Shown piece after piece: positions 10,106-32,517 of a DNA stretch of 40,234 bases. Source of the stretch: an uncultured Chloracidobacterium sp. Its GTDB lineage: Bacteria; Acidobacteriota; Blastocatellia; Pyrinomonadales; Pyrinomonadaceae. Below the pieces are notes generated by a model, which saw nothing but the letters and a program-made list of their open reading frames with translations, was not told the DNA's origin and did not search any database. The stretch lies in assembly GCA_964636445.1 (NCBI GenBank), contig CAZWSK010000003.1:1-40234 (forward strand). Reading direction: 5' to 3'. The stretch's first letter is position 1, and each line of letters opens with the position of its first letter. Both the position numbers and the translations under genes were made by a program.

Positions 10106-12063
10106 GTTTTCGAAATTACCCGGAGCAGTTCGGCCACGCTCCAAGCCTGAGCAGCTGCGCCTCGCGGCCTGTGCGGCGGATCCCCGTCGAATACCTCAGA
10201 TACCTGGCCGAGCAATGCCGCCGAAAGGTGCTCAATAAGCGGCGCGGTGATCTCGTCGATACGCCGTGCGGCGCGCGGGTCTTGTGAATGTGTGCGGCGG
10301 TAGGCGTCGACAAAGTGTCCGATGAGCCAGGCCCAGACCGTTCCCTGATGATATGCCGCGTCACGCACATGTGGCGGACCCTCGTAACGGCCGACGTAAC
10401 GCGGGTCGCGAGGCGATAAGCTTCGCAGGCCGTACGGGGTCAAAAGCTCAGCCTCGACCTTTTTCACGATGCTCCTCGCCTGCGCCGCGTCGAGCATCGT
10501 GTGTCTGAGGCTGACCGCGAAGATCTGATTTGGCCGCACCGACGCATCACGCTCGTCGCCATTGACCACGTCGAACAGGTAGCCCTCGGCTTCGTTCCAA
10601 AACGCGTCACGAAACGACGCCCTTGCGTCAGCGGCCATTGAGCGGTATTGCGCCGCAAGCGCAGCGTCGTCGAACGCATCCGCGAGGTCGGCCATCACGC
10701 ACAGAGCGTTGAACCACAACGCCTGGATCTCGACCGCTTTTCCTGTTCGAGGCGTTATGACCTCGTCGCCGACCTTGGCGTCCATCCACGTCAATTGAAC
10801 TCCAGGCACGCCGGCCGTCAGGAGGCCGTCCGCATCAACGCGAATGCCGAAACGCGTGCCGCGGACATGCCAATCAACAATGTCGACGAGCTTCTCAAAT
10901 AGATCGCCTCGGACCAGTTCAAGGTCGCCTGTCTCGGCGATATAGGCGCGGATCGCCTCAAAATACCAGAGCGTCGCGTCCACGGTGTTGTAATCCGGCA
11001 CTTCGCCCTCGTCAGGGAAGCGGTTGGGCAGCATTCCATCGGAGATATGGCGTGAGAACTCGGTCAATATGCTCTTCGCGGCGTCGTAGCGTCGAGTCGT
11101 GAGCGTGAGTCCCTGCAGAGCGATCATCGTGTCCCGGCCCCAGTCGGAAAACCAGGGGTAACCGGCAATGACCGTGTGTCCTTCGCCGCGGCGGACGATG
11201 AATTGGTCGGCGGCGAGAACGAGTTGCTGAATAACCTCGTTTTTCGCACCTGATGCGGCGACGATGCGAGCACGCCGCTTTATCTCGCTGCGTTCGAGAT
11301 CCTCGTGATCGGCCATGCCTTGCGGCTGCGTCGAGGCGATCACCACGGCCGGCTGCGAGAGGTCGAAATTCAGCACGCACGGCTGATAAAGGTCCTCGCG
11401 AGAGTCAAATCCACGCTCCTGCTCGATCGCGTATTCGACGTTGCGGTACCATACACCGCTCCGCTCGACGTCTGCGGCATTGTGAGCCAGATGCAGCGTC
11501 AAGGAATTCGCACCTGAATGCAAGCTTACGGTGTTGTCGGAGAACTCCGTGGTGACTTTCAGTGCTTCGTCGTGACGCAGATGGTGATGGTCACGAAACG
11601 CGACGAGGGGACGAAGCTCGAGACTTGCCTCCGCCGACTTATCGACCGACCATCGGCACACAGTTGTGTTCTCACCGTCGACCATGAACAACGAGCGTTC
11701 GAGCTTCGTCCCGTCCAGGTCATACGTCCAGACAGGGAACGGGTCGAGGCGAAATTGAACGAGATACTGATAACCTGACGGATGGATCGTGCCGGGATAC
11801 TGATTGCACGACAACTCGAAGCGTTTGCCGCCGATAACGGCTGCCTCTTCGAACTTCGACAGCAGCACCATCCGCCCTAGCGGAGGATGCGTGGCTGCGA
11901 CCAGCAGCCCATGATATCGGCGGGTGTTGGCACCCGCGACGCTCGACGAGGCATAGCCGCCGATGCCGTTCGTCTCGAGCCACTCGCGCGAGAGAGAGCT
12001 ATCGAGATCGGTGCAAACGTCGCGTCCTAAGGTGATCATTATGGGTTGATTATACCGCCGCAA
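10102..12063 (-). CDS. Glycogen debranching enzyme / amylo-alpha-1,6-glucosidase family protein
   Basis: N-terminal REWLETNGIGGYASSSVAGANTRRYHGLL. C-terminal six-hairpin region with GYPWFSDWGRDTMIAL and HQGTVWAWL. An alternative start is at 12039. Confidence 0.88.
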   Translation of the reverse strand: MRRYNQPIMITLGRDVCTDLDSSLSREWLETNGIGGYASSSVAGANTRRYHGLLVAATHPPLGRMVLLSKFEEAAVIGGKRFELSCNQYPGTIHPSGYQYLVQFRLDPFPVWTYDLDGTKLERSLFMVDGENTTVCRWSVDKSAEASLELRPLVAFRDHHHLRHDEALKVTTEFSDNTVSLHSGANSLTLHLAHNAADVERSGVWYRNVEYAIEQERGFDSREDLYQPCVLNFDLSQPAVVIASTQPQGMADHEDLERSEIKRRARIVAASGAKNEVIQQLVLAADQFIVRRGEGHTVIAGYPWFSDWGRDTMIALQGLTLTTRRYDAAKSILTEFSRHISDGMLPNRFPDEGEVPDYNTVDATLWYFEAIRAYIAETGDLELVRGDLFEKLVDIVDWHVRGTRFGIRVDADGLLTAGVPGVQLTWMDAKVGDEVITPRTGKAVEIQALWFNALCVMADLADAFDDAALAAQYRSMAADARASFRDAFWNEAEGYLFDVVNGDERDASVRPNQIFAVSLRHTMLDAAQARSIVKKVEAELLTPYGLRSLSPRDPRYVGRYEGPPHVRDAAYHQGTVWAWLIGHFVDAYRRTHSQDPRAARRIDEITAPLIEHLSAALLGQVSEVFDGDPPHRPRGAAAQAWSVAELLRVISKT

Positions 12064-12463: not shown

Positions 12464-13036
12464 ATGAACGATGACAAGCCATCGGAGATAACCCGCATTT
12501 TGCGCGAGTGGAATGACGGCAACGAAGCTGCTAAAGAGCAGCTGCTGCCATACGTCTACGATGAGCTGCGCCGGCAGGCCCGCATAATGATGGCGTCTGA
12601 GCGCGGAAACCACACGCTCCAGCCGACGGCTTTGGTGCACGAGGCATTTATCAAACTCAGCAAGGATTCCGGCATCGCCTGGTTGAATCGAACCCATTTT
12701 TTCGGCATCGCGTCGCGCCTGATGCGTCAGATCCTGATCGACCACGCGCGGCTGCACGCGACCGCAAAACGTGGAAACCGGCCGATACACTTCTCGCTCG
12801 ACGACGTGCAGGTCCCCGTCGATAAGCGTGCAGATTCGCTCTTGGAATTGAACGAGGTGCTCGACCGCCTAGCGAAGCTTGATGAGCAGCAGGCTTCGAT
12901 AGTCGAGATGCGTTTTTTTGGCGGCATGACCAATCAAGAGATCGCCGAATGCCTGAATATATCGGAGAGGACCGTCGTGCGCGACTGGCAGGCCGCCCGA
13001 CTCTGGCTGTACAGGGAATTGAATTCGAAGCGTTAG
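12464..13036 (+). CDS. ECF-type RNA polymerase sigma factor (TIGR02999 / ECF43-like, kinase-associated group)
   Basis: The N-terminus ITRILREWNDGNEAAKEQLLPYVYDELRRQAR...GHTLQPTALVHEAF is typical of the TIGR02999 family. Region 4 HTH MTNQEIAECLNISERTVVRDW. A Ser/Thr kinase gene follows directly. Confidence 0.88.
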   Translation: MNDDKPSEITRILREWNDGNEAAKEQLLPYVYDELRRQARIMMASERGNHTLQPTALVHEAFIKLSKDSGIAWLNRTHFFGIASRLMRQILIDHARLHATAKRGNRPIHFSLDDVQVPVDKRADSLLELNEVLDRLAKLDEQQASIVEMRFFGGMTNQEIAECLNISERTVVRDWQAARLWLYRELNSKR

Positions 13037-13108
13037 CAAAAATCTTGGCTGATTTTTCTGACATTTTACGCATATTGGTTTGAGACCGAGCTATCGCGCA
13101 CGCAGCCG

Positions 13109-15844
13109 ATGCAGCCTAAGAACTGGGACACCATCAAAAACATTCTCGATGAGGCTCTGAGCCTCGATGCGAGCGCCCGGAACGCTTACCTTGACGGGGC
13201 AGGACTTGCTCCGGATATTCGGGCGGAGGTCGATTCATTGCTCAGCTTCGACGACCAGTCGGCGGACATGATGCAGCTGTCGGCGGTTGAGTTTTCACGC
13301 GAATTTCTCGACGAACCGGACGCGGGCAATTCTTTGAACGGACAGCAGATCGGGAATTACCGCATAGTTTCTGAGATCGGCCAAGGCGGCATGGGCGCCG
13401 TGTATTTGGCTGAGCGCATCGACGGCAAGTTTTCGCAACGAGTAGCGCTCAAACTGCTCAAACGCGAGATGAACACGGCGGCATTGCGACGCCGGTTTGA
13501 ATTGGAGCGTGACATTCTTTCGCGCCTCGAGCATCAAAATATCGCCCGCCTGCTAGCGGCCGGCACGACGGACGATAAAGTGCCATTCATTGCGATGGAA
13601 TACGTCGATGGGCGGCCGATCGACGAGTACTGTAATAAGCATCGGCTCGGCCTCGACGAACGGCTGAACCTATTCCGCCAGATCTGCTCGGCCGTAGATT
13701 TTGCTCACAGGAACCTGATCGTACACCGCGACCTTAAGCCGTCTAACATCCTCGTCACCGACGACGGCACGCCCAAGCTGCTCGATTTTGGCATTTCAAA
13801 GATCCTCTCCGACGATACTGATGGCCCCGCGGCGACAGTAACGCGGCTGGGCGCGATGACACCGAGTTATGCGTCGCCCGAGCAGCTCCGCAGCGAAAGC
13901 GTGACCACCTCGACAGACGTTTATTCGCTCGGCGTAATACTTTTCGAACTGCTCAGCGGCTGCCGGCCCTTCCAAAGCAAGGAAGGGAATCTGAACGACG
14001 TCCTCCACGCCGTGATCGAGACGGACCCGCCGCTGCCGTCGTCAGCGGCGTCGACGCTGCCGGGGCACTCAGTGCCGAGGCGGGCAAATGGCGATGTGGC
14101 ATCTGGTAACGGGCAGTCTACACGTCAGCGAGCCAACAAACTCACCGTGCCTCAGCGAATGAGCGTCAAGCCGCATTACCTGAGGGGCGATCTCGACAAC
14201 ATTATTCTGAAAGCTCTGAAAAAGGAGCCCGAGCGGCGATACCTATCACCTGAGAACTTCGCTGAGGACATTCGGCGTTATCAGGAAGGCCTTCCCGTGA
14301 CGGCCCGCCCTGACACGCTGGTGTACAGGGCAGGAAAGTTCGTGCGGCGGAATCGATTTGCGGTCGCAGCGGCAGCACTTATCCTTATTGCGATCATTGC
14401 GGGTGCGATAACGACGCTGTGGCAGGCGCGTGTCGCGCAGGCGGAACGGCTGCGTGCGGAGAGCCGGTTTAACGACGTTCGCAAGCTTGCAAATTCCTAT
14501 ATCTTCGATGTTTATCCTGAGATCGAGAACCTTGAGGGCTCGCTCAAGGCACGAGAAAAAATACTCACAAACGCCCTGCAATATCTCGACAGTCTTTCGA
14601 GTGAGGTCAGCGATGATCTCGAACTGCAGAGCGAACTAGCGACGGCGTACGAAAAGATCGGTGACGTGCAGGGTGCTCTTACGAATTCGAGTCTCGGCAA
14701 CATCCAAGCTGGACTCAACAGCTATCGCAAGGCCGCACGCCTACGCGAGGCCGTGTATGCGGCCGATCCGTCGAATTTGGAAGCAAAAGAGAAGCTAGCC
14801 GCGAATTATTACACGACCGCACGTACGCTGTGGAATAACAGCGAGACTAAGGAAGCATCAGAAGCATTTGAGCGGAGTATAACGCTGCGTCGCGAGTTGA
14901 TCGCCGCCGATCCAAGCTTTGTAAAGTACCAGGACCGCCTCGCAGTGACCCTGATCGACTACGGTGCAATACCGGTATTCAACTCGCAGACCGACAAGGC
15001 ACTCGTGCTGTTCGACGAGGCCTTGGCTATTGTCGAACGGCTGCGAGCGGCCGATCCTGCGAATTCAGATTTCAAGAAGACGCAGGCGCGGCTGCTCAGG
15101 ATAATGAGCAAGGCTAAAGGGTCGATCGGCGATTATGAAGGCGGCATTCGGGGCTTTGCGCAAGCGGCGGAGATCAGTCGAGAACTTGCAAATGAGTTTC
15201 CTGACGATTTCCGTGTTCAGCGAAGCGTGTGGCTAACGGATTCGATGACCTGCGAGCTGTATATCGATAAAGAAGACCCGCACAAAGGCGTCGAGACGTG
15301 CTTGCCCACGGTCGAGTTTCCCACCGCCGCGTTGGCCAAGGAGCCCGAAAACGGGGTTGTCGCTTACGATCTTGCTATCTCGCACTTTAATACTGCTCGA
15401 GCCTATCGCTTCGCGGGCGACTATAAAAACACCATCCTGCACGCCGACAAGGCCACGGCAGTAATGACAGCCCTAAGCAATACGACGGACGAAAACCTCG
15501 AATATCAACGCAACCTCGCCGTCTATCGGACCGAACGTGCACGGGCCCAGCTTAAACTCGGAAGATACCCCGAAGCCCAAGCCGACCTGCAGCGTGTGCT
15601 GGCGATCATGCTCCCCATTGCGGAGGCTGACCCCGAAACAACAACCTACCGGTACGATGCCGCGATGGCGTATCGCCTTTTAGCCGAGGCCTATGCGAAG
15701 ACCGGCAGTAAGCCGAAAGCGGTCGAGAATATCCAAAAGGCGATCGCGATCATCGAGGAGCTTCGCGACAAGAACGCCCTTCGCGACCACGATAAGGACC
15801 TGCTGACTGAGCTCGGCAGAGAACTAGCCGATTATTCCGCGTGA
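13109..15844 (+). CDS. Membrane Ser/Thr protein kinase with a large C-terminal TPR-like repeat domain
   Basis: Hanks motifs IGQGGMGAVY, VALK, HRDLKPSNIL, DFGISK and SPEQ. One TM helix (AVAAAALILIAIIAGAITTLW). About 450 aa of TPR-like repeats. Confidence 0.92.
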   Translation: MQPKNWDTIKNILDEALSLDASARNAYLDGAGLAPDIRAEVDSLLSFDDQSADMMQLSAVEFSREFLDEPDAGNSLNGQQIGNYRIVSEIGQGGMGAVYLAERIDGKFSQRVALKLLKREMNTAALRRRFELERDILSRLEHQNIARLLAAGTTDDKVPFIAMEYVDGRPIDEYCNKHRLGLDERLNLFRQICSAVDFAHRNLIVHRDLKPSNILVTDDGTPKLLDFGISKILSDDTDGPAATVTRLGAMTPSYASPEQLRSESVTTSTDVYSLGVILFELLSGCRPFQSKEGNLNDVLHAVIETDPPLPSSAASTLPGHSVPRRANGDVASGNGQSTRQRANKLTVPQRMSVKPHYLRGDLDNIILKALKKEPERRYLSPENFAEDIRRYQEGLPVTARPDTLVYRAGKFVRRNRFAVAAAALILIAIIAGAITTLWQARVAQAERLRAESRFNDVRKLANSYIFDVYPEIENLEGSLKAREKILTNALQYLDSLSSEVSDDLELQSELATAYEKIGDVQGALTNSSLGNIQAGLNSYRKAARLREAVYAADPSNLEAKEKLAANYYTTARTLWNNSETKEASEAFERSITLRRELIAADPSFVKYQDRLAVTLIDYGAIPVFNSQTDKALVLFDEALAIVERLRAADPANSDFKKTQARLLRIMSKAKGSIGDYEGGIRGFAQAAEISRELANEFPDDFRVQRSVWLTDSMTCELYIDKEDPHKGVETCLPTVEFPTAALAKEPENGVVAYDLAISHFNTARAYRFAGDYKNTILHADKATAVMTALSNTTDENLEYQRNLAVYRTERARAQLKLGRYPEAQADLQRVLAIMLPIAEADPETTTYRYDAAMAYRLLAEAYAKTGSKPKAVENIQKAIAIIEELRDKNALRDHDKDLLTELGRELADYSA

Positions 15845-15845
15845 T

Positions 15846-17285
15846 CTAAAAACTGTAAGCGAACGCCAAATTTAGGTGCTCGGCCGTTCGCCTTCGCGCT
15901 AGGCGATACCACGTATCAAAACGCCTGACCTCAAATCCCATCTGAAACTGGGGTGTAAATTTATAGATAACTTCGCCGGCAAACCCGAGGTTTCTGGTCC
16001 GCCAGTCGCGATTAGCAACGCTCGTCAGGACACTATCGTCAGGATCGTCGATCCCGACTGTGCCATAAAATCCGAGTTTATTGCCCTTCATTCGCGGCGT
16101 GATCGCGAGTTGAAGCCAGCCGCCGCGTGTACTTATCGCACGAATGCCATCCGCCGTGGCCGCGTTGCCTTGAACGTAGGCAAAATCCGTATTCACGCCC
16201 TGAAAAACGCCGGCCTGAAATCCGCCCAAGCCTTGTCCCGTGAATGCCTCGCCCGTGATCGCGATGATGTCGCTGAGCGGCAGGTTCCAGTCAGCGGCGA
16301 CGCCCCAGGACTCATCTGTGTAGCGCGTGTTCGCGGGGCCGGAATTCGCCGCTAGTCGGCCCCAATGGCCCGAGACGCCGATGGATCCGTTCTTCTTACT
16401 GGCAAACCAGTTTTTACCGCTATATGCCAGGCGGCTCTGGAAGAACGGAACACCCGATGTCGAGCCAGAGTTTGGTTGCAGGAGAAACCCGCCCGCGGCA
16501 GCTGAGTCGCCTGACTGCGGTGCAAGCACGGCCCCTTGCAACGAAACATGACCGAATTTCCGTTCGACCTTGATCTGCGGAATACGCGCCCAGTTGTTGC
16601 CGGCGGATGCCATCTGCGGAATCGCCGCCGCGGCGAGGGAAACAGGATTTTGCGGGGCAAACGGCATCCAATCTTGCCCGATCGTGACCGCGGTCTTTTC
16701 CCAATCGAGCCTTACGTTAGCCAAACGTAGACGAACAAGACCGAAATTCTCACCAATGCCGATCCCCGGCGAGCCGCCGTAGAAATCCGCCTCGACGATC
16801 GCTCCAAGCCGCGCCTTGCCGACCTTCGCCCCTTCCAGCCGAAGGCCCAGGCGTGTCTGCCTGAGGCTCGCGCTCGTGCCGCCGTTGCCGCTCGCAGCCG
16901 CAAACGTGGGTACGTCAGCATTGTTAACGCCGCGTGTGTTCCCATACATATTGAAGTAGATCGTGCCATACGGCGTGAGTCGTGCACCGCCGAGGTCAAC
17001 GCCAATATCGCGAGATTTGGCTGACTCTGTCTTTGCCGGAGGTTCGGGCTTTGTTGTGGCGACCACGGGTTGCGTTGTAGATGCGTTTGTATCCGCCGGG
17101 GGCGTGGGCGGTTGTTGCCGTCGAGCGAGTTCCTCGGTGAGAAGCTTGACTGTGGCCTCAAGGGCCTCGACGCGGCGCGTCAATTCATCGACGTCCGGCG
17201 AGCCCACGCGAGTCTGTCCGGATGCCCCGATAGAGGCGGCGGTAATGATGGCAATTGCGTAAATCGTTCGGTGCAGGACCTTCAT
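15846..17285 (-). CDS. Outer-membrane porin (DcaP / OprO-P-like architecture): signal peptide, coiled coil, Pro/Thr linker, beta-barrel
   Basis: Start moved to the ATG at 17285, which is preceded by AGGAGA. Signal MKVLHRTIYAIAIITAASIGASG. Coiled coil DVDELTRRVEALEATVKLLTEELARRQ. C-terminal NLAFAYSF. Confidence 0.72.
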   Translation of the reverse strand: MKVLHRTIYAIAIITAASIGASGQTRVGSPDVDELTRRVEALEATVKLLTEELARRQQPPTPPADTNASTTQPVVATTKPEPPAKTESAKSRDIGVDLGGARLTPYGTIYFNMYGNTRGVNNADVPTFAAASGNGGTSASLRQTRLGLRLEGAKVGKARLGAIVEADFYGGSPGIGIGENFGLVRLRLANVRLDWEKTAVTIGQDWMPFAPQNPVSLAAAAIPQMASAGNNWARIPQIKVERKFGHVSLQGAVLAPQSGDSAAAGGFLLQPNSGSTSGVPFFQSRLAYSGKNWFASKKNGSIGVSGHWGRLAANSGPANTRYTDESWGVAADWNLPLSDIIAITGEAFTGQGLGGFQAGVFQGVNTDFAYVQGNAATADGIRAISTRGGWLQLAITPRMKGNKLGFYGTVGIDDPDDSVLTSVANRDWRTRNLGFAGEVIYKFTPQFQMGFEVRRFDTWYRLARRRTAEHLNLAFAYSF

Positions 17286-17344
17286 ATATCTCCTTGCGTG
17301 CGGAAAGCGCTGAGTCAATTCTGAGTTCGCCCCGCAACGGCGGC

Positions 17345-17360
17345 TATGACCCAGGTCACA
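17345..17360. promoter_or_regulatory. Candidate Crp/Fnr-family operator TATGACCCAGGTCACA (copy 1 of 3)
   Basis: Quasi-palindrome in the porin/crp divergent region. On the porin strand it is followed 21 nt later by the -10-like CAGAAT (17323-17318). Confidence 0.5.
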
Positions 17361-17409
17361 TACCGAGTTCGATAACCCTGGGCCGAAGCGCTAAAATTGA
17401 GTTATTGCT

Positions 17410-18042
17410 ATGGCGCAAGTCGACGACAAAATTCTAGAGATGGTGGCGGAGCGGTCTTCTGCCAAGCGATTTTCGACAGGGGAGATCGTATTTTCCGAGG
17501 GCGACGACGCGACTTTCCTGCCGACGGTGGGCTCCGGCATGGTTAAAATGGTCCGTTATCCGGAGCTCGGAAAAGAGGTCATCGTCGGGACGTTTGGTGC
17601 GGGGGAGATATTTGCTATTCCCCCGGCGCTCGACGGCAAGAGTTTTCCAGCGACGGCAGTCGCAATGGAAGATTCCGAACTCCTGATCATGCCTCGAAAC
17701 GAGTTTAAGGCCCTTATGGATCGTTCGCCGAAATTCTCGGCGGTAATTCTTGAGCAAATGTGCGGCATTCTTCGCCAAAAGGCTGATACCGTGCGGATAC
17801 TTGCAACGCCGTCCGCCGAACAGCGTATCGCCGGCATTTTGCTCGGCATCGTCGGCGACATGAATGGCAACGGCCCAGTTCGCATCGATCACCGTCGCCA
17901 GGACATCGCCGACATGGCGGGACTGACAATTGAGACGACGATCCGCTCGATTAGGCGTATGTCATCTCGCGATATGTTCAGGATAGTCCGCGGCAAGATC
18001 TACATCGATTCTCTCGCGCCGCTCAGACGGCTGGCCGAGTAG
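17410..18042 (+). CDS. Crp/Fnr-family transcriptional regulator without an FNR-type Cys cluster
   Basis: cNMP-binding-like beta-barrel (FSTGEIVFSEGDDA...GAGEIFA). C-terminal HTH RQDIADMAGLTIETTIRSIRRM. There is only one Cys in the protein. Confidence 0.88.
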   Translation: MAQVDDKILEMVAERSSAKRFSTGEIVFSEGDDATFLPTVGSGMVKMVRYPELGKEVIVGTFGAGEIFAIPPALDGKSFPATAVAMEDSELLIMPRNEFKALMDRSPKFSAVILEQMCGILRQKADTVRILATPSAEQRIAGILLGIVGDMNGNGPVRIDHRRQDIADMAGLTIETTIRSIRRMSSRDMFRIVRGKIYIDSLAPLRRLAE

Positions 18043-18061
18043 GCTCTACTTTTTTGGCCTG

Positions 18062-18077
18062 TATGAGGCAGGTCATA
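18062..18077. promoter_or_regulatory. Candidate Crp/Fnr-family operator TATGAGGCAGGTCATA (copy 2 of 3)
   Basis: Centre is 59.5 nt upstream of the ric ATG. The -10-like CACAAT lies 21 nt downstream. The SD AGGAGG precedes the ATG at 18129. Confidence 0.5.
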
Positions 18078-18128
18078 TTCCACGAACTCCCAAACACGCA
18101 CAATGTCATAAGTCACTAGGAGGACTTT

Positions 18129-18869
18129 ATGAATCTAGACTTGCATACAAAAACAGTTCGCGAGATCGCACTTGCGATGCCGATAACAACGCGCGTTTTC
18201 GAGGAATACAAGATCGATTACTGCTGCCATGGCCATGTAAATTTTGACGAGGCATGTATTCACGCAGGGTTGGATCCCGACGCAATGGTGGAAAAGATCG
18301 ACGGCGTTGTGGGTGATCTCGGCAACCGGGAACTCGACTGGTTGCAGACGGCCGCTCTTGCCGAGGTTATCGATTATATTATCGACAAACACCACGCCTA
18401 TACCCGCGACGAGATGACGCAGTTGACGCCGTTGATGAACAAAGTGGCCACCCGTCATGGAGATCATCTGCCGTCCCTCATTGAGCTGGAAGCCACATTT
18501 CAGTCCCTGTGCGACGAATTATTCCCGCACATGATGAAGGAAGAAAACGTTCTTTTCCCGTACATCGAGGAGATGGAATCACGGCGTGATAAAAAGATGT
18601 CGCCGGCATTTCCGCCGTTCGCGACTGTTCGCAATCCCGTCAACATGATGTCGATCGAGCACGAACAGGCCGGCGAGCTGCTGGTCAAGATGCGTGAACT
18701 GACGGACAACTACACGCTGCCTGAATGGGCCTGTCCTAGTTTCACGGCACTGTATCATCGTATGGCCGAGCTAGAGGCCGACCTACACCAGCACATTCAT
18801 CTCGAGAACAATCTGCTCTTCCCGAAAGCAGTCGAGATGGAACAGGAACTGTTCGCAGCGGCGGTGTAG
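18129..18869 (+). CDS. ric: Iron-sulfur cluster repair di-iron protein (RIC; ScdA/YtfE family)
   Basis: ScdA_N-type N-terminus ITTRVFEEYKIDYCCHG. Hemerythrin-like His/Glu motifs (DKHHAYTRDE, HMMKEENVLFPYI, EHEQAGE, HIHLENNLLFP). Confidence 0.88.
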   Translation: MNLDLHTKTVREIALAMPITTRVFEEYKIDYCCHGHVNFDEACIHAGLDPDAMVEKIDGVVGDLGNRELDWLQTAALAEVIDYIIDKHHAYTRDEMTQLTPLMNKVATRHGDHLPSLIELEATFQSLCDELFPHMMKEENVLFPYIEEMESRRDKKMSPAFPPFATVRNPVNMMSIEHEQAGELLVKMRELTDNYTLPEWACPSFTALYHRMAELEADLHQHIHLENNLLFPKAVEMEQELFAAAV

Positions 18870-18872
18870 ACT

Positions 18873-19697
18873 ATGGCAATGTCCGCAACGATCTCAAAAC
18901 CCAGGCCCGTGCGGCGTGTTCGCCTCACGCAGATCCTACTTCCCACCGAGCATGGGTCCTGGGGCTTTTTGTTCGAACCGATCGTTGCCGGCCTTGCCAT
19001 TGCGTTCTCCCTCGGCAGTGTCTGGATAGCGGTTGCCGTGGTCGGGGCTTTTATGGCACGGCGGCCGCTCCAGGTGCTGATAAATGTGTGGCGTCGGGGT
19101 GATCCGAACAGCATAGCGCCTGTTGCTGCGAACTTCCTCGCCGCGTTCTCGATCCTGACAGTCGGCGGTGTTGTCGGCGCATACGTCTCGGCGGGGCCGC
19201 AAAGCCTCGTGCCGCTGGTGGCGGTATTGCCGCTCGCTCTCTTCCAGTTGTGGTACGAGATCTCGCGGCCCGGCCGTCAGCTGTTCGCAGAGATGTCGGG
19301 CGGCATCGTGATGGGCGCTACGGCCGCGGCGATGGTGATCGCGGCCGGGATGTCCTGGCCCATAGCCGCAGGGCTTTGGTTCATCTTTGCGGCACGTTTC
19401 CTCCCGTCGATCCTGTATGTTCGGAACCGCCTTGCCCTCGAGAAAGGGAAGCCGATGTCACACGCCATTCCGATCACCGCCCACATCGTCGCGCTCACCG
19501 GCGCGGCTGCGCTCGCGGGCGCCGGCATCATTCCGGTGCTGCCGGTCGCCGTATTCTTCCTGTTATTTCTTCGAGCCGCCGTCGGCCTCTCACCTCTGCG
19601 TCGACGCGTTAAGGCAAAGAGAATCGGCGTTTGGGAGGTTATCTATGGGGCATTATTGGTGGCTGTCGTTATCTTCTCGTACCATTCGCAGGCCTAA
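18873..19697 (+). CDS. YwiC-like integral membrane protein
   Basis: About 8 TM helices. The N-terminal LPTEHGSWGFLFEP motif is typical of the YwiC-like family. It starts 3 nt after the ric stop, so an operon is likely. Confidence 0.65.
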   Translation: MAMSATISKPRPVRRVRLTQILLPTEHGSWGFLFEPIVAGLAIAFSLGSVWIAVAVVGAFMARRPLQVLINVWRRGDPNSIAPVAANFLAAFSILTVGGVVGAYVSAGPQSLVPLVAVLPLALFQLWYEISRPGRQLFAEMSGGIVMGATAAAMVIAAGMSWPIAAGLWFIFAARFLPSILYVRNRLALEKGKPMSHAIPITAHIVALTGAAALAGAGIIPVLPVAVFFLLFLRAAVGLSPLRRRVKAKRIGVWEVIYGALLVAVVIFSYHSQA

Positions 19698-20332
19698 ACT
19701 CCTGCTCCACACTCGAACATCGTATCTTCTTCCTCCGCGAGGATCGGCAGAGCCGCCTCGCGGAGCTTATTTTTGTCCTTATCGGGCCCGACGCGTGCAA
19801 ATAGCGCCTCACCGGCAAGTTCGAGGTATTCGATCCCTGACCCGGCAAGCAGGGCGTTCATCTTTTCCGAATATTTCGACAGGTGGTCGTCGATGAACGC
19901 CGCGGCAGCGTCGGCCGTGATCTCGGCATTTTGGTCATCACCACACTCTCGTGCATACAGCTCTTTGAGCCGCATATAGCCCACGAAACCCGCCTCGACA
20001 GCGATGTGGTCGGGAACTTCGTTCGTTTTGGTCTTGAAACCAAACGCGTCGTAGTACGCAGAGAGCTCGGACAGCATCTGGCCGGGCTCGACCCAGCTGC
20101 GATAGCTGACCTCACGGCCCGGAGCCGGGCCGCCGGGACCGAATATCGAATGAAAAAATCCTTCCGACGCCTCTTTCTGTGCCGCTCTCGCTGCTTTTGA
20201 GAGCTCTTTGTCGTGTACTTGTTCGCCGAGCTGCGAGACCTGGCTGAACCAGTCGTCCTGCGGGCAATCGAACAACAGGCTGATCAAACGCCATTCGGCC
20301 GCCTCGTTCAATAGTTGATTAGCGTCTTTCAT
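19694..20332 (-). CDS. TorD/NarJ/DmsD-family redox-enzyme maturation chaperone (delta subunit)
   Basis: EWRLISLLFDCP and PDHIAVEAGFVGYM motifs are typical of the nitrate reductase delta / TorD family. It is the last gene of the operon. Confidence 0.78.
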   Translation of the reverse strand: MKDANQLLNEAAEWRLISLLFDCPQDDWFSQVSQLGEQVHDKELSKAARAAQKEASEGFFHSIFGPGGPAPGREVSYRSWVEPGQMLSELSAYYDAFGFKTKTNEVPDHIAVEAGFVGYMRLKELYARECGDDQNAEITADAAAAFIDDHLSKYSEKMNALLAGSGIEYLELAGEALFARVGPDKDKNKLREAALPILAEEEDTMFECGAGV

Positions 20333-20336
20333 ATTT

Positions 20337-20828
20337 TTAGGTATTCGCTGCCTTCAGAGCCTCGTCGCGTCGATGGACACGCGACATGACAGCGGCCTTT
20401 TCGTCTTTCGTCAAAGTCTCATCGAGCAGCGGATAGAGATGCTCAGCCTCGCGCCGGTCGTGGTGAGCGGATAGCCGCAGATAGAACGCCTCGTGGCCCA
20501 GGATCCGCAATACGTCAGCCTCGATATCAACAGCGTTGTTCAGAGCTGCAGTCGCGTTCTTGAGGACGTCCAGATGAGAGAGCATCTTCTTGTGCTCATC
20601 GAGATAGAGCTTAGGTGCGGCGACGGCAGGGAATTCACACCTTCCGGAATAGACCGGGATCAGCACCTCTTCCTCGTCCTTCATGTGCCGCATCAGCAGG
20701 GCTTCATAGCCCTCGAGCCGCTTGAGCGCGGAGGCGTGGTCGAGCCGCAGAAGAGCACGCTGGTGTTCGAGAAAGATAGCGTCTAGCTCATTGTGAACGC
20801 TCATTAAGCTTGCGATCGAAAGTGTCAT
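20337..20828 (-). CDS. Hemerythrin-like (HHE cation-binding) protein, 163 aa
   Basis: His/Glu patterns VHNELDAIFLEHQ, HMKDEEEVLIPVY, DEHKKM and HHDRREAEHLYPLL. Start set to the ATG at 20828, which forms an ATGA overlap with the upstream stop. Confidence 0.68.
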   Translation of the reverse strand: MTLSIASLMSVHNELDAIFLEHQRALLRLDHASALKRLEGYEALLMRHMKDEEEVLIPVYSGRCEFPAVAAPKLYLDEHKKMLSHLDVLKNATAALNNAVDIEADVLRILGHEAFYLRLSAHHDRREAEHLYPLLDETLTKDEKAAVMSRVHRRDEALKAANT

Positions 20829-21667
20829 TTCAACATCATCGGCACCCAACCGGTGCGCATTTTCCGTGCTCCGACCTCGCCGTGCGCCGCTTCCCAGACC
20901 GCAAACGCCGTCTGAGACGGCGTCGAAGACGAAAACGCCGCTGGCACCGGCCGTGAGATCACGACGGCCCAGCCGGTCTTCGTTCTTATGCCCTTGCCCT
21001 TGGACGTCGTAGCCGCAGCGGGCGTTAGCGTCCCGGGCCCTTCGGCTATCATGTCCTCGACCGGCTGCTCGCGTGGGCCCGAACGCCGATTGCCGACGGC
21101 CTTGGCGGGGGCATAACGCGCGGCTGCGTCGGCAAGCGCTTGCGGGTTTCCTTCGAGCGAGCTGGCCGTCGATGGATAATGATCGATGCTCGCATTCGGA
21201 TAAATGCTCTTAATGTCATCCGTAGCCCGGCCTTCGACGATGGCCTGCCAGTCCGCACGCCAGAACGCGATCTCGACGGTCTTCCCGGTCTCGCCCATCT
21301 GCGGAGCAGGAACGTTCGCCTCGATCTTTGCCGGGATCTGGACGGCACAGCCGTCGATAAAATGCTTCGGCCCCGGCATGTCATTCTGCGTGTCATCGAG
21401 CCATTCGAGCCTGAAAGCGATCTGCTGCCCGTCGGAGATGGCCTTGACCTGTACTTCCGCCGTCGAGGGCTGCATCACGCGCGGGTCGACGAGATCCTGC
21501 GGGATCATTTTCGAGATGTGCAGCGGCACATTTGCCCACACGCCCGCGTCCGGGTCGAGCGTGATCTCGGGAACCTGAGCGACCTGGACTTCCGCGGTCG
21601 CGACCTGTGTACGGCTGCACGCTGCGGCGAACAAACTAACCAAAACTACGAGTAATAACAGTCGCAT
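20825..21667 (-). CDS. Gamma subunit of a type II DMSO-reductase-family enzyme (EbdC/SerC/DdhC/NxrC-like heme-b domain), predicted lipoprotein
   Basis: Signal MRLLLLVVLVSLFAAAC with a lipobox-like FAAC. It sits directly after the FeS beta subunit. The C-terminal FAVWEAAHGEVGARKMRTGW resembles the EB_dh-domain terminus. Confidence 0.65.
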   Translation of the reverse strand: MRLLLLVVLVSLFAAACSRTQVATAEVQVAQVPEITLDPDAGVWANVPLHISKMIPQDLVDPRVMQPSTAEVQVKAISDGQQIAFRLEWLDDTQNDMPGPKHFIDGCAVQIPAKIEANVPAPQMGETGKTVEIAFWRADWQAIVEGRATDDIKSIYPNASIDHYPSTASSLEGNPQALADAAARYAPAKAVGNRRSGPREQPVEDMIAEGPGTLTPAAATTSKGKGIRTKTGWAVVISRPVPAAFSSSTPSQTAFAVWEAAHGEVGARKMRTGWVPMMLK

Positions 21668-21680
21668 AAATCCACTCTCC

Positions 21681-22810
<1,130 letters not shown>

Positions 22811-22823
<13 letters not shown>

Positions 22824-23290
22824 AGTTTGTTGTTCTCCGTAGTTGTGGGGTTAAGATCGGCGGCCCATTTGATGTGCCGGCCTTTGAAGATCGCCGCGAT
22901 GAGCAGCGTTGATGCGAAGATGCTGAATAATAGAACGACCGCATAGGCGAAGCGCGGAAGTTCGGCATCGACCTTTCCGCGAACGATGCCGACGACCGAC
23001 GCGATGCCTGCGAAGAGTACTGTCACGAGTGCTGCCGTCGCTATCAGCTTGTGTGTCTCGAGTGCTGCAGCCCGCGAGCCTTCAATCGTTGCCTTAACGG
23101 CCTGCCCGGCAAATTCGCCCGTGATCGCGACCGCTACAGTGAATAACGCCATCAGGGCGATGATCTTGAGCGCGAACCGTTTGCGGGGCGCACTCTGGGT
23201 TATGTAGCCCAACGCCAAGACGAGCGCGCCGATAACAAAACCGATCGCAGGGTAATAGTTGACCAAAAGATGTACTTTTAGGGCATCCAT
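22811..23290 (-). CDS. Small 4-TM membrane protein (DUF2231-like?) between the alpha and beta subunit genes
   Basis: Four hydrophobic helices. N-terminal [13 protein letters not shown] resembles the DUF2231 HPxxVHFPI motif. There is a 0-nt gap to the alpha stop and a 13-nt overlap with the beta start. Confidence 0.55.
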
Positions 23291-26200
23291 CTATTTCTTC
23301 TTGATAAATTCGCCGGCGAGATACTTCTTCATCGCGTCGGACTCGTTTCGCGGCCTGATGCCGAGCTTAACGGGACGCCATAGCGGCTCGTCTCCGATGC
23401 CGCCGGGCTCGGCTTTCGTGATCTTCACGAAGGCCTCACGCGGTGCTCCTGTCGGACAGTGGATATCGGCAGCAAATCCCTTGCCCATGCCCTGGCCGAA
23501 CATTCCTTTCCGCACCAGCGAATCGGTCATCCACGTCGGCTTGAGCCAGCCGCGTGTGGCGGACTGATGCGAGCCGGTGCGGAACATGGCCTGATAGTTC
23601 GTTCGCGGATTCTTCGCTAAGCCGTCCTTACGTTCCTTCGCTCCCTGCACAGAACCGGGCGTAGCGGCGTACATGTTGAACCACATTCGCGTCACGCCGC
23701 GCGGCGTGCCGGGATAGTAGCGTGCACGGCACATAAGGCGGGCGAACTCATAGTTCTTCTTGTCCTTCTGCCAACCCCGGAAAGGCCGATCCTCGGGGTC
23801 GCCGTCGATCCAAACGTAATCGCCGTCGTTTATGCCCAGCTCTCGCGCATCCGACGGGTTGATGTCCACATACCCCTCCGTCACGAACGGCTGTCGTTTG
23901 TCGTGGCGGTAAACGTCGCCGAACGGGCCAAACAGCATCGCGTTCATGTCCGTATCAATCGGCGTAGTATGAGCGCCGTGACGATACTTCGGCGTATGGA
24001 AAATGAACTTGTAATCGTCCTTGATCAGCGGATGCGGCTTGTTCTTGGCCTCGGCCCATGTGTAGACGACATTGCGGCCGCAACGCGTCTCGCACGACAG
24101 GTCGTCGCGCTTGACGCCGTAATCCTCAGGCTGAGCCGGCCGCAAGGCCTCGTGCGGGGCCGAGATGATGATGTTCGGCTCGTAGAATGTCGAGTCGACC
24201 GGTTCGCGGTGGACCGGCAGATTCTCGCCCGCCTCTATGAATTCGTCCTCTTCGCGATACATCTCGAGCCGGCCGCTCTTCGTGTACCACGGCGTATTGT
24301 CCTCGAGCTGGTCGTAACCGACGTTTTTAGGTGTTGTGCGACTGTTCATCAGCGCGGGGACGCCGTTCAGAGCTTTTTCGTGAAGCTCGTTGAAGTTGTA
24401 GCCTTTCGTGTTTGTCGAGTTATCGAGGATCCGCTGCAGGTAGATATCGGTCTTGCCCTCGCGGACATATTTCCAATAGTCGTTGAACCGCTGATCGCCC
24501 GTCAGGTCGGCGAGCTTGGATGCGACGGTCGCGAACACCTCGATGTCGCCCATCGTGTTGAAGATGCGCTCGATCGGCGTCTTGGGAAAAACGAGCAGGA
24601 ATGGATTCGTGACCGACGCGGTCATGTCGGGATGCTTCAATTCCGCCCATGAATCGACGCCAAAGACCACGTCCGCCCACTCACAGGATGTCGACCACCA
24701 CCATTCGTTGACGCAGATCATCTCGATCCGCGGCAACGCGTTGACCACCATGTTGTAGTGCCACTTTACGTTGCCAAGGATAGAATTGGCGTTAGCAAAC
24801 CAGAGTGACTTCGTGGGACACGGCATGTGCGATTTGCCTGTCAGCAGCCGGTTGCCAACACGGAGAGGGTGGTCCTCGTGGTTGTAATAATGTGCGGACT
24901 CAGCGTCCCAGTACTGTTTTGGCCGGGCCGGCTTCGCCGGGTCAAGCTCAATGTCAAACGGATTCTCAGCGATCCATTGCGGCGAGCCGTTGAACAAGGC
25001 GGTGCGGTAATTGCCCGCGTACGAGCCGACATTACCGCCGATCTTACCGACGTTTCCCGTCAGGGAAGCGAGTAGGAAGACGTCGCGGTCTTTGTTGTCG
25101 CTGTTAAAGAACTGGTTCGGGCCCATCCCGAGAGCGAACAGCGTCGTGCCGGGGTCCTTGGCAAAGTGACGTGCGAGCTTCTCGATAGCGGCCGCGGGTG
25201 CCCAGGTGAGTTCCTCGACCGTCTTCGGGTCAAAGTGCGCGGCATACTCCTTGACGAGATCGAAAACCGGACGGCACTTCACTTTGCTGCCGTCGGCGAG
25301 GGCGACCTCGACAACGCCTTCAAGCTGTGCGTCGCCCGCCTTGGAATTGTCGCCGACATCGTCGCGTGTCAACGCGACAGGGGCGCCTGTTTTCGTGTCC
25401 CAAACGACATAGTCGCCCCACTCGTTGCGGAGCTTTTCGGGAACTATATTCTTGATACCTTGTTGTATCGGCGGCGGCTCTTTCTCGCCTTCTTTGACGA
25501 TATAGGTCTGTTTGAGTTCGGCCGGGCCGCCGCCGAAAACCTCTGACGCCTTTAGATATTTGAGCGTGTCCATCCTGACGAGGATCGGCATATCCGTCCA
25601 TCGTCTGACGTAATCCTCGTCATAAAGCTTTTCCTGCATTATGACGTTTGCGAAGCCGAGTGCGACCGCCGGCGTCGTGCCGGGACGCACGACGACGACC
25701 TCGTCCGCCTTTGTCGCCGTCGCGGAATATTCGCATGCAATGACGACGACCTTTGTGCCTTTCATCCTCGCCTCGGTCAGCCAGTGTGCGTCGGGCATCT
25801 TGGTCGTTATCCAGTTCATTCCCCAGACGACGACTGTCTTAGCCTGTTCGACCGAGTTAAGATCGAATTCAACCGTCTGCTGGCCCGTGACCATCGTGTG
25901 GCCGGGCGGCAGGTCGGTGTGCCAGGAGTAATTGTCAAAGCCTCTCGCTCCGACAGCCTGATCGGGCCCGACGCCGCGGATCTTGCTGTCGAGCAGCGCC
26001 ATCGAATTTGCCATTCGGTACATACCGAACACTCGCGTGATGCCTAGCAGCGGCATACCGCCGCGGAACTTCATCACACGCGTTCCGATGCCGCGCGTCG
26101 CCTCGATCGTAGCCTCGTCGTAGTGCTGTTCCTTCAGGCGACGCATTCCTTCCTCGCCGGTGTAGGTCTCGGCGACATTCTTTAGAACCGCTGCGACGAT

Positions 26201-26728
26201 CACGGCGGCTTCGTCGTGAGACATCCGGACCCATTCGTCTCGGCCGCGGTTGAAGTATGTTTCGCTCGGTTTGCCGTCGTTGCCGCGCGGGAATCCGTCC
26301 TCGTACCACTTCTTAAATCCCGCACGGACCATCGTGCCGTTCACGCGGCGGTCGCCATAGAAGCGTCGCGTCAGAGCGAGTCCCTTTTGACAAACACGCG
26401 GGTCCCAGCGGTGCGAGGTGCCGTTGCCGAGCAGGTCGACGGCTTCGCCGTACTTCATCGTCGGCCCGATGCGCGTGATGACGCCCTGGCGTACGTGGGC
26501 GTTGAGGAGGCAGTTATGCGTGTCGTTCGGAGCACAGGTGAAGGTGTATCGCGAATCGTATTTCCAAAGGTCACGATATGCGTTTTCCCAGTCGCGATTC
26601 GGATAGACGGCGAGCGGATTGGTTATCGCGTCGAGGCCCCAGGCGTTTGTTGCCGACATCGCAAGGGCGCCGAAACCCGCGGCCGATACCCTCGCCATGA
26701 ACTCGCGTCTCGATAATTCGTTTTTCAT
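23291..26728 (-). CDS. Tat-exported molybdopterin catalytic subunit, NxrA / periplasmic NarG-like (type II DMSO reductase family), 1145 aa
   Basis: Twin-arginine signal [28 protein letters not shown]0 motif C65-X3-D69-X3-C73-X39-C113 ([11 protein letters not shown]...RVCQKG). Mo-ligand Asp context YSWHTD272LPPG aligns with E. coli NarG YDWYCDLPPASP. SD GAGGA lies before the ATG. Confidence 0.9.
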
Positions 26729-26737: not shown

Positions 26738-28399
26738 CTACTTCGCTTTTAATGACCGCAAATAAACCACGAGCGCTTCGATCTCAGACTGTGTCAGGAC
26801 GGGTCGAGTGGGCGAACCGTTCGCAAATCCCTGCATCACCGTTCCGCGTCGGCCGTTTGTAATGGTGCCGACCAGATACGTGTCAGTGGCCGCCGCGAGA
26901 AACGCAGGATTGCCAAGTGCCGGCCCTTCACCGCCGGCTCCGGCCTTGCCGTGGCAGCCCGAACAATTCGCGCTGAACAATCGCTCGCCGGTTGCCACAT
27001 CGCCGGCCGCCCATATCTGGGGCTTCGCGTCGGGTACGGCCTGAACGCCGCCGCCGAGAGCACGGATGTATGCGATCACGGAGCGGATCTCGTCGTCGTT
27101 CAGCCCGTTCTCCCGTTCACCCCACGCGAGCATCGGCCGCCCGGGGCGGCCGCTCTTGATGTTTGCTAACAGGAACTCATCCGATGCCAGAGCGAGAAAG
27201 TCCGGATTGGTGATCGACGGATTCGGCGCCAGGCCCGGATAACGGGCGCCTCCGCCATTCGCTGCGTGGCATGCCGCGCAGACCGCTGAATAGATCGTCG
27301 GACCGTCATTGGCAAACTCACGCTCACCGAAGCGCATTGCTCTCACTCGGTCTTTCGGCAAGAAGACGTCCGGCAGCGTCCGCCGCCGGAGGCTCAGCGT
27401 GTAGAGCGTCAGCAGATCGATCTCATCCTCGTTCAGGCCAAGTACGGGCATTTGCGATCCCGCAACAGTCGAGGCCGGCGATCGAAAATGCTGAGCCATC
27501 CAATTTGCCACGGAACGCTCGCCGGGAACGCGTGAAAAGTTGAGCTGATTCGGGTCTTTGAGGCCTGAGATCGAGAGGTTAAGACCTGCGTCACCGCCGA
27601 AACTTCCGATGGTGTGACAGCCGGCGCAGCCGAGAGAGTTGTACTGTGCCTTTGCCTCTATCAGCTTCGACGCACCCATTTGCGTGTCGAGAAAGATCTT
27701 GAGAGCGGCTTGGTCCTGCTCGCTGACCTCACGGAAGGAATTCTTCCATGCTCCGTCTGCTGCGGCCTGGTTCTTGGCCAAGTGTGCCGCGTACCATTCG
27801 GCGTTGTAGCCCTTCATTCCGACGACGGAGAGGTCGGGCCCTTCCATTCCCGTGATGTCGCCGCCCGGTCTTACCGTCCCCCCGCGGCCGTCGAGGCGGT
27901 GGCAGGCGTAGCAATCGAGGCGTTCGAAGGTCTTACGGGCATTGTCATACGTGGGCTTATTCGGGACATTCAGCGGTGTATGGCACGTACCGCAGCTCGC
28001 GTACGCATACTTGGCAGGCAGCATCGGCTCGGTCCAGAAATGAACGTTGCCGTGCGCATCGTCCCTCTCGGTCGCCTGTCCCTGGCCTCCGTGGCACGTC
28101 GTGCAGCCCATTTCGCTGACGGAATGGACCACCGGCTTATGCGCGGCACCAACCTTTAATGGGGAAGTGATCTGTTCGCCGGCGGCCATTCCGGTGTGGC
28201 AGGTGACGCAGCGGTCGGTGACCTTGAGATTCGGATTCACGATCTGCCGCAGCTTGACGTCGAGTGGCCCGTCCGCGGTCGAGGCGGTCCCCTGTATCTT
28301 GTGCCAGTCCTTGCGAAAATTCTCGCTGTACGCGGCCGCGACCAGCAGGACGAAAACCCCGAGGCTTGAGATCATCAATAGATACTTGTTCTTGTTCAT
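26738..28399 (-). CDS. Membrane-anchored heptaheme cytochrome c (4 multiheme-type plus 3 class-I-type domains)
   Basis: Seven CXXCH motifs: CVTCH, CTTCH, CGTCH, CYACH, CAGCH, CAACH and CSGCH. N-terminal TM helix YLLMISSLGVFVLLVAAAY. Confidence 0.88.
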   Translation of the reverse strand: MNKNKYLLMISSLGVFVLLVAAAYSENFRKDWHKIQGTASTADGPLDVKLRQIVNPNLKVTDRCVTCHTGMAAGEQITSPLKVGAAHKPVVHSVSEMGCTTCHGGQGQATERDDAHGNVHFWTEPMLPAKYAYASCGTCHTPLNVPNKPTYDNARKTFERLDCYACHRLDGRGGTVRPGGDITGMEGPDLSVVGMKGYNAEWYAAHLAKNQAAADGAWKNSFREVSEQDQAALKIFLDTQMGASKLIEAKAQYNSLGCAGCHTIGSFGGDAGLNLSISGLKDPNQLNFSRVPGERSVANWMAQHFRSPASTVAGSQMPVLGLNEDEIDLLTLYTLSLRRRTLPDVFLPKDRVRAMRFGEREFANDGPTIYSAVCAACHAANGGGARYPGLAPNPSITNPDFLALASDEFLLANIKSGRPGRPMLAWGERENGLNDDEIRSVIAYIRALGGGVQAVPDAKPQIWAAGDVATGERLFSANCSGCHGKAGAGGEGPALGNPAFLAAATDTYLVGTITNGRRGTVMQGFANGSPTRPVLTQSEIEALVVYLRSLKAK

Positions 28400-28400
28400 A

Positions 28401-29951: not shown

Positions 29952-29953
29952 CG

Positions 29954-32343: not shown

Positions 32344-32404
32344 ACTTGTCCGGTGGGAGCCGATTAGACTTACCTCGACGATATAGTCCGGCGAACCGCC
32401 CAAA

Positions 32405-32420
32405 TATGACTCAGGTCACA
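32405..32420. promoter_or_regulatory. Candidate Crp/Fnr-family operator TATGACTCAGGTCACA (copy 3 of 3), with a -10-like hexamer for the 10-gene operon
   Basis: On the minus strand the motif is followed 19 nt later by TATATC (32385-32380). The centre is about 69.5 nt upstream of the ATG at 32343. Confidence 0.5.
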
Positions 32421-32517
32421 TCGGTGAGGAATTTGTGCGAACTGTTGTATTATTTGTACGATCGGTGCTCGCCGGGCTTCTTTTTCCGGCCCTCGGCCAT
32501 CCAAACTCCGCTGATTT

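Follow-up and report, generated by a model that had tools for sequence, protein, structure and literature searches.

Predicted Crp/Fnr-type operator sites upstream of ric, an outer-membrane protein gene and an NXR-type operon in Blastocatellia

Three copies of one palindrome were studied in a stretch of DNA of 40,234 nucleotides (nt) from an uncultured Chloracidobacterium sp., a soil acidobacterium (contig CAZWSK010000003.1); this stretch is called the window here. The palindromes are real, conserved sites and are predicted to be operators. We consider it likely that they are bound by a dimer of the Crp/Fnr-family regulator encoded beside two of them, which would activate three transcription units from the class II position. 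These units are ric, the gene of a 479-amino-acid (aa) outer-membrane protein (OMP479) and a ten-gene operon for an NXR-type molybdoenzyme.

The palindromic box in the window and in related Blastocatellia

The pattern TATGASNCAGGTCAYAT (TATGAsnCAGGTCAyAT) matched exactly at 17345-17361, 18062-18078 and 32405-32421, all written on the plus strand, and no further match was found in the window even when up to three mismatches were allowed. In 100 dinucleotide-preserving shuffles of the window the matches averaged 0.27 and never reached three. All three copies were intergenic. The initial annotation had placed the motif at 17345, 18062 and 32405, between genes and beyond chance, and this was confirmed. 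There was a trivial discrepancy of length, its coordinates spanning the 16-nt core, its written pattern 17 nt and its title 18. The 16-nt sites are listed with their scores in a weight matrix from related genomes, which is described below.

17345-17360, TATGACCCAGGTCACA, predicted operator site 1, in the divergent intergenic region between the OMP479 gene (ATG at 17285, minus strand) and the regulator gene (ATG at 17410); score 16.1
18062-18077, TATGAGGCAGGTCATA, predicted operator site 2, upstream of ric, between the regulator stop (18042) and the ric ATG (18129); score 18.3
32405-32420, TATGACTCAGGTCACA, predicted operator site 3, upstream of the GltD-like first gene of the ten-gene operon, between this gene and a plus-strand open reading frame (ORF) starting at 32518; score 20.8

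The plus-strand copies look alike in all three sites because the box is a palindrome. The promoter-proximal half was a perfect GTCATA and the distal half was imperfect in three of three sites. The 50-nt flanks on each side could not be aligned, and the common part was the core of 16-20 nt only. A dispersed repeat or a miniature inverted-repeat transposable element was rejected, since the three regions have no more than this core in common. Even a low threshold of the weight matrix gave no extra site in the window, and Rfam and transfer RNA scans of the window gave no match.

Conservation was investigated in 80 loci (1.22 Mb) of Blastocatellia (Acidobacteriota) around orthologous regulators, with 10 kb scanned on either side of each regulator. 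Gene calls in these loci were heuristic (longest ORF, greedy), and distances to start codons were approximate. TATGAY-N4-RTCATA with at most one mismatch gave 125 matches (about 10 expected), of which 109 were intergenic. A symmetrised weight matrix built from 81 distinct sites read wwTATGAy-yyrr-rTCATAww and was partly circular, as its sites were picked using the pattern. With a score of at least 12 it gave 172 matches, compared with 3 in the reversed-sequence control. Site density was 0.49 per kb within 1.5 kb of the regulator and 0.029 per kb elsewhere (17-fold). It was 0.77 per kb in intergenic and 0.015 per kb in coding sequence (53 times). Most strong sites (147 of 163) lay within 350 nt upstream of the regulator or of nitrogen-oxide gene families, and most of the remaining 16 stood at the same relative positions where the gene caller had failed. 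A strong site was found within 1.5 kb in 54 of 77 regulator loci.

Perfect 5-mer palindromes were also counted without seeding and with the window excluded. ATGAT-N4-ATCAT / TATGA-N6-TCATA ranked top upstream of ric and OMP479. Upstream of the DUF7009 gene it ranked second to TGATC-N2-GATCA, which overlaps it as the inner part of the same box. For the regions before qNOR there was only a tie (2/11), and the palindrome was absent upstream of the operon-internal control genes. The TGTGA-N6-TCACA-like geometry of Crp/Fnr sites, as first described for the window, was upheld by the 5-N4-5 dyad in both the symmetrised matrix and this count. The palindrome of the original consensus stood as well, whereas CAGG as a fixed centre did not: the family consensus was TATGAy-N4-rTCATA, and the CAGG of the window reflected only a general yyrr preference of the spacer.

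Orthologous sites were found upstream of OMP479 in 20-23 loci, and 35-48 sites belonged to ric. The 19-nt block holding site 2 was invariant in the four closest relatives, and the spacer to the -10 element diverged. The site before the GltD-like gene was also present in L047 and L067. The motif thus recurred by the regulator orthologues, upstream of the same target families, in the phylogenetic footprinting that had been proposed with the motif.

The true start of the GltD-like gene was assigned to the ATG at 32343 (MQQLRV), in agreement with orthologue starts (MxxLKV). It is unlikely that site 3 serves the plus-strand gene at 32518 instead. That family was seen in the window only, its start lies 105 nt away with a terminator-like hairpin in between, and the orthologous sites stand before GltD-like genes. 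The hairpin with its T-run was located at 32462-32485 (plus strand). ORFs 32518-33369 and 33370-34212 were tandem paralogues, the second with a weak VanY match.

Promoter spacing and the Crp/Fnr regulator

The -10-like hexamers were searched with the site centre as anchor, requiring A at position 2, T at position 6 and at least four of six matches to TATAAT. The hexamer started exactly 30 nt downstream of the site centre in 32 of 42 ric promoters and 19 of 34 DUF7009 promoters. The distance was 28-31 nt in the OMP479 and qNOR promoters and 30 nt in two of three GltD promoters. With the hexamer at -12 to -7, the site centre falls at -41.5, which is the class II position. The promoter elements in the window were as follows.

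17318-17323, minus strand, -10-like hexamer CAGAAT of OMP479, 30 nt from the centre of site 1 and 21 nt past the 16-mer
18099-18104, plus strand, -10-like hexamer CACAAT of ric, 30 nt from the centre of site 2 and 21 nt past the 16-mer
32380-32385, minus strand, weak -10-like hexamer TATATC of the operon, 28 nt from the centre of site 3 and 19 nt past the 16-mer
17369-17397, plus strand, predicted sigma-70-like promoter of the regulator gene (TCGATA, 17 nt, TAAAAT), from a consensus scan

The hexamers that had been reported 21, 21 and 19 nt after the motif for the outer-membrane protein (called a porin at first), ric and the operon were found at these distances. Transcription is predicted to start near 17311 (minus strand) for OMP479, 18111 (plus strand) for ric and 32373 (minus strand) for the operon. 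The spacing expected of the class II position near -41.5 that had been claimed for all three fitted exactly at ric and OMP479 and was conserved, also at DUF7009. It fitted less well at the operon, with its weak hexamer at 28 nt. The operon promoter is the least certain of the predicted class II candidates in the window. The corresponding promoters of L047 and L067 carried TAAAAT starting at 29-30 nt.

No complete sigma-70 promoter or -35 consensus was found for ric in the consensus scan. The predicted promoter of the regulator places site 1 near -51.5 for this gene. Judged by these predicted elements, site 1 is positioned for the divergent OMP479 gene rather than for the regulator. Autoregulation of the regulator is possible, in either direction. 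Between the regulator and ric no convincing intrinsic terminator hairpin was detected (z = -0.88), so transcription from the regulator gene may read through into ric. Just past the ric -10 element, the sequence ATGTCATAAGTCAC (18103-18117) with its two GTCA repeats was shared by the four closest relatives. It may represent the start region or leader, or else a second element that resembles a half-site.

The regulator gene was identified by Pfam, homologue alignment, a PDB profile search and an AlphaFold2 (AF2) model compared by Foldseek.

17410-18042, plus strand, Crp/Fnr-family regulator, 210 aa

The protein matched cNMP_binding (PF00027, E=1.3e-20, 73.6 bits against a cutoff of 27.5) and HTH_Crp_2 (PF13545, E=1e-10, 41.8 bits against a cutoff of 27). 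The AF2 model showed a beta-roll followed by a long helix, with a mean predicted local distance difference test score of 78 and low confidence at residues 118-132. All of the top 50 Foldseek matches were CRP/FNR/GlxR/Clr-type structures (E ~1e-17 to 1e-15, 20-25% identity), and no subgroup among them was clearly closest. The PDB profile search gave the order Clr, Thermus CRP, FNR and then DNR, all with superfamily-level E-values. No NCBIfam equivalog reached its cutoff for the regulator; the CRP equivalog NF008732 gave 42 bits against 266. There were 195 homologues, and those with a source name were all from Acidobacteria, mostly Pyrinomonadaceae or Chloracidobacterium. The related loci were labelled Pyrinomonadaceae, Chloracidobacterium or Blastocatellia, and the closest was L005, 79% identical at the regulator.

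C118 was the only cysteine of the regulator, with none in the first 100 residues and no N-terminal FNR cluster. The original assignment of 17410-18042 to a Crp/Fnr gene without this cluster was therefore confirmed by Pfam, Foldseek and the single Cys. The positions of CRP Arg82/Ser83 were Phe79/Pro80, invariant in 19 orthologues. An FNR of the [4Fe-4S] type was rejected, as the Cys cluster is absent, and so was a cyclic AMP (cAMP)-dependent CRP, as the Arg-Ser pair for cAMP binding is absent. Of 78 orthologues, 65 shared the motif Met-Cys-Gly (residues 117-119) at the start of the dimerisation helix. This motif and the nearly invariant His161 are candidates for contacts with a ligand or haem.

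The recognition helix E-[TS]-T-I-R, which is ETTIR in the window, was nearly invariant in the 78 orthologues and matches the invariant ATGA/TCAT core of the box. In the alignment SRETVSR (4ev0) paired with TLETTIR, so that CRP E181 and R185 align with Glu and Arg of the regulator. The position of CRP R180 was I, L or T in the family. Rodionov et al. connect G at box position 3 with R180, and a conserved A with E181 (PMC1274295). Here E181 and the conserved A were kept, R180 was absent and box position 3 was A. The absence of R180 together with the lack of G at position 3 fits the published rule (PMC1274295).

Target genes and their surroundings

The predicted targets at sites 1 and 2 were the following genes.

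15846-17285, minus strand, OMP479, with a signal peptide, an N-terminal coiled coil, a probable beta-barrel and a C-terminal Phe
18129-18869, plus strand, ric, a YtfE/ScdA/DnrN-type di-iron Fe-S repair protein (TIGR03652; Pfam ScdA_N and Hemerythrin)
18873-19697, plus strand, a YwiC-like membrane protein (Pfam)

The ric product reached 236 bits in TIGR03652, where the cutoff is 204.7. The pair of ric and the YwiC-like gene was kept in most loci, and the latter is probably co-transcribed with ric. OMP479 of the window had no Pfam match, and weak OMP_b-brl matches were obtained for 7 of 14 members of its family (best E=8.8e-6). No sequence relative was found in the PDB except for the N-terminal coiled coil. 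A porin is plausible from these features. An ECF sigma factor gene (Sigma70_ECF) directly followed by the gene of a 911-aa Ser/Thr kinase with TPR repeats occupied 12464-15844 of the window. In L006 and L007, too, the OMP gene had this pair (families f31 and f36) as its neighbour.

Ten tightly packed minus-strand genes ran from 32343 down to 19694.

30430-32343, minus strand, gene 1, GltD-like NAD(P)H Fe-S flavoprotein
26738-30505, minus strand, genes 2-4, Rieske protein, cytochrome b and multihaem cytochrome c (Pfam)
23291-26728, minus strand, gene 5, NXR-type molybdopterin alpha subunit, 1145 aa, with a twin-arginine signal (N-terminus SRREFMARV)
19694-23290, minus strand, genes 6-10, a 159-aa protein, Fe-S beta subunit, EB_dh haem-b gamma subunit, hemerythrin and NarJ-like chaperone

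The alpha subunit matched Kuenenia NXR-A over its full length (7b04_B, E=1.5e-260), and the next best matches were perchlorate reductase (E ~1e-52) and NarG (~1e-38). This match and the twin-arginine signal indicated a periplasmic NXR-type nitrate/nitrite oxidoreductase. The order of genes 6-10 was conserved in relatives. An NXR of the anammox/Nitrospira type thus stood in one operon with Rieske/cytochrome b, a multihaem cytochrome c and a GltD-like flavoprotein. This module resembles those Rieske/cytochrome b complexes of anammox bacteria in which an NAD(P)H-oxidoreductase subunit is present. In a survey of 2018, nxrAB genes were reported as absent from Acidobacteria (PMC5900883), and for wastewater genome bins the score was simply narGHI (PMC8100337).

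Across the loci, the box-linked targets were ric, the regulator, DUF7009, OMP479, qNOR, a divergent GCS2-CBS gene, a cupin and NrfA/NarK-like genes. Two operons were further targets, namely an operon of a 366-aa membrane protein (mem366) and a molybdoenzyme, and the GltD-led NXR operon (window, L047 and L067). These targets, with NXR/Nar-type enzyme, NrfA, NarK-like protein, qNOR, RIC, the globin neighbour and DUF7009, point to the control of nitrogen-oxide respiration and nitrosative stress.

Several arrangements were seen in the relatives. A DUF7009 gene (~127 aa, PF22668, E=6e-37) stood between the regulator and ric in most of them (L008-L065, ~10640-11040; L016, 10651-11034). It had its own box and -10 element at class II spacing, which hints at a function in nitrogen-oxide stress, and it was absent from the window and its three closest relatives. 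Opposite the regulator, a divergent operon with a shared box was frequent (L019, L022, L024, L026, L030, L037 and L043) and was absent from the window. It encoded the 366-aa membrane protein, a 743-aa molybdoenzyme, an Fe-S protein, a Rieske protein, an 81-aa protein, NarK-like MFS transporters and sometimes NrfA. A second group of regulator paralogues, 45-50% identical and with the same ETTIR helix, stood beside a globin-like gene and qNOR (L060, L062, L068-L070 and L075-L083; for example L068, 11258-15642). In this group the same box was located between qNOR and the divergent GCS2-CBS gene. Both paralogue types occurred in some genomes (JAKQII: L052 and L068).

Proposed mechanism, alternatives and known regulators

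In the mechanism that we propose, a dimer of the regulator would bind the palindrome, and each recognition helix (E-T-T-I-R) would read one TATGAy half-site. The site would take the place of the -35 element at ric, OMP479 and the ten-gene operon, centred about 41 bp upstream of the start. The bound dimer, activated by its signal, would recruit RNA polymerase, and ric-ywiC, OMP479 and the NXR operon would be switched on together. We infer binding by this regulator rather than by a paralogue, activation as the outcome, and the identity of the signal. Several points weigh against this reading. The link between regulator and motif rests on co-localisation, all loci having been chosen through the regulator, and the motif frequencies refer to the 10 kb on either side of it rather than to whole genomes. 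Paralogues with an identical recognition helix were present in single genomes (L052/L068; L013/L018), which bears on site occupancy and makes cross-talk at the same boxes likely. None of 33 regulator promoters had class II spacing. The operon hexamer TATATC lacks T at the sixth position and starts 28 rather than 30 nt from the centre. The signal was guessed from the content of the regulon only.

Another factor might read the motif, such as a paralogous Crp/Fnr protein, a true O2-sensing FNR or a member of another family, with the adjacent regulator being merely a target. The identical-helix paralogues would allow this, FNR-type and DNR-type factors often share boxes (PMC8510549), and 23 of the 77 regulator loci did not have a strong site within 1.5 kb. 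However, the sites flank the regulator gene in most loci with the 17-fold enrichment, the dyad has Crp/Fnr geometry, and the recognition helix varies as little as the motif core. No other regulator family was conserved in the neighbourhood. The NsrR box (gATGyAT-N5-ATrCATc) differs in its spacing, N5 instead of N4, and in the base after ATG, and an NsrR-type (Rrf2) box was rejected on these grounds. Binding by such a factor in place of the adjacent regulator is improbable. We regard it as similarly improbable that the same regulator is a repressor, working like NsrR at ytfE/hmp and released by NO (nitric oxide) or nitrite. Enterobacterial ric/ytfE is indeed under the repressor NsrR (PMC1274295), and the site just upstream of the consensus-like -35/-10 elements of the regulator promoter in the window would permit either outcome. 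In contrast, the sites at ric, DUF7009 and OMP479 are in the place of the -35 element, with a fixed 30 nt to the -10-like hexamer and no recognisable -35. This is the signature of an activator-dependent class II promoter, not of an operator over a self-sufficient promoter. An artefact of chance or of a repeat element without a regulatory role might be suspected from so short a motif with only three copies in the window. It has a negligible probability, as three copies did not arise in the shuffles, the flanks are unrelated and the orthologous promoters in the 80 loci keep the motif.

For activation by this regulator, NO or nitrosative stress has about an even chance of being the signal. NO is favoured because the constant targets are the classic NO-defence set, with ric in one paralogue group and qNOR beside globin in the other. 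The signal could also be oxygen limitation, nitrate/nitrite (as for NarR) or a cyclic nucleotide, and the system would then be a switch for anaerobic respiration rather than a nitrosative-stress response. We hold this as a tentative possibility. A respiratory NXR/Nar-type complex that has a Rieske/cytochrome b module of its own is the largest target, NrfA and NarK-like genes belong to the regulon of relatives, and the Cys of MCG is conserved at the start of the dimerisation helix. However, the FNR Cys cluster is missing, the invariant Phe79/Pro80 speaks against cAMP, and ric and the globin-linked qNOR are the most constant targets. The missing residues argue against cAMP and also against O2 sensing through a [4Fe-4S] cluster.

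The system would work like DNR, NNR, NnrR, HcpR or NssR, and it lacks the features that define FNR proper and CRP proper. DNR, NNR and NnrR are NO-responsive activators of denitrification in Pseudomonas, Paracoccus and Rhodobacter. Like the regulator here, they have the Crp/Fnr fold without the FNR Cys cluster and a 5-N4-5 dyad box. Their box is used at the class II position, which is predicted here as well, and their regulons consist of nitrogen-oxide reductases including nor. A ric homologue, dnrN, lies beside a dnr gene in P. stutzeri. The ric product of the window stayed far under the cutoff of the NCBIfam DnrN model (E=6e-30, 105 bits against 300). The similarity to DNR was at superfamily level only (3dkw, E=4e-16, worse than FNR or Clr). 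The boxes differ, with TATGAy-N4-rTCATA here, TTGAT-N4-ATCAA for DNR and TTGcg-N4-cgCAA for NnrR. Unlike in those regulons, no nirS, nirK or nosZ was seen among the targets, which include an NXR-type enzyme, an outer-membrane protein and DUF7009.

HcpR of delta-proteobacteria and cyanobacteria is a predicted regulator of nitrosative stress with the box wyTTGACnnnnGTCAArw, divergent from norB in Synechocystis (PMC1274295). The window sites have the TGAC-N4-GTCA core in common with it. However, the base before TGA is A here instead of T, the half-site of the relatives is more often TATGAT, and no hcp or frdX is in this regulon. Orthology to a characterised DNR, NnrR or HcpR member was not supported by the NCBIfam cutoffs, the PDB rank or the boxes. 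E. coli FNR is similar in box geometry, in the class II position at -41.5, which is a prediction for the sites here, and in the Glu and Arg of its recognition helix (E--SR). It differs in that the regulator here has a single Cys without the N-terminal cluster, which makes [4Fe-4S] O2 sensing unlikely, Ile at the Ser212 position and A for T in the box. NssR of Campylobacter (Cgb/Ctb globins, box TTAACnnnnGTTAA) is a Crp/Fnr activator of an NO-defence set, as is predicted for the regulator here, and the second Blastocatellia paralogue group beside globin and qNOR resembles it. Its box is different, its specificity residues are A180/Q181 and the similarity is remote. NsrR, an Rrf2 protein that represses ytfE/ric, hmp and hcp, controls ric upon NO or nitrite, signals that may act here too, and has a box with ATG...CAT, but it belongs to an unrelated family and is a repressor.

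At the position of the T in the FNR, DNR and HcpR boxes and of the G in the CRP box, the box here has A, and this variant is apparently undescribed. Neither this box nor a Crp/Fnr nitrogen-oxide regulon of Acidobacteria turned up in a literature search of limited coverage. A broader reading is that the regulators form an as yet unrecognised, Blastocatellia-specific NO/nitrogen-oxide-sensing Crp/Fnr branch with a new DNA specificity, in which the A of the box is linked to Ile at FNR-Ser212 and a non-Arg residue at CRP-180, and with an NXR that has its own electron-transfer module as the main target. We find this doubtful as a whole.

The mechanism itself is conventional and reveals no new mechanism; the box variant is modest, and the composition of the regulon is unusual. 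Blastocatellia (Pyrinomonadaceae, Chloracidobacterium-like) are abundant in soils and activated sludge, and their nitrogen-oxide metabolism has so far been inferred from gene presence only (PMC8100337, PMC5900883). The predicted operator and its regulator define genes that would act together, namely those for the NXR/Nar-type enzyme, NrfA, qNOR, RIC, the outer-membrane protein and DUF7009. They give a functional hint for the unknown families DUF7009, OMP479 and the GCS2-CBS protein, and a testable rule of Crp/Fnr specificity at one box position. The box may also serve as a sequence marker in reading metatranscriptomes and help to annotate abundant uncultured Acidobacteria. If the separate branch with its NXR target were true, soil and wastewater Acidobacteria would have an unstudied mode of nitrate respiration or nitrite oxidation that is switched by this regulator.

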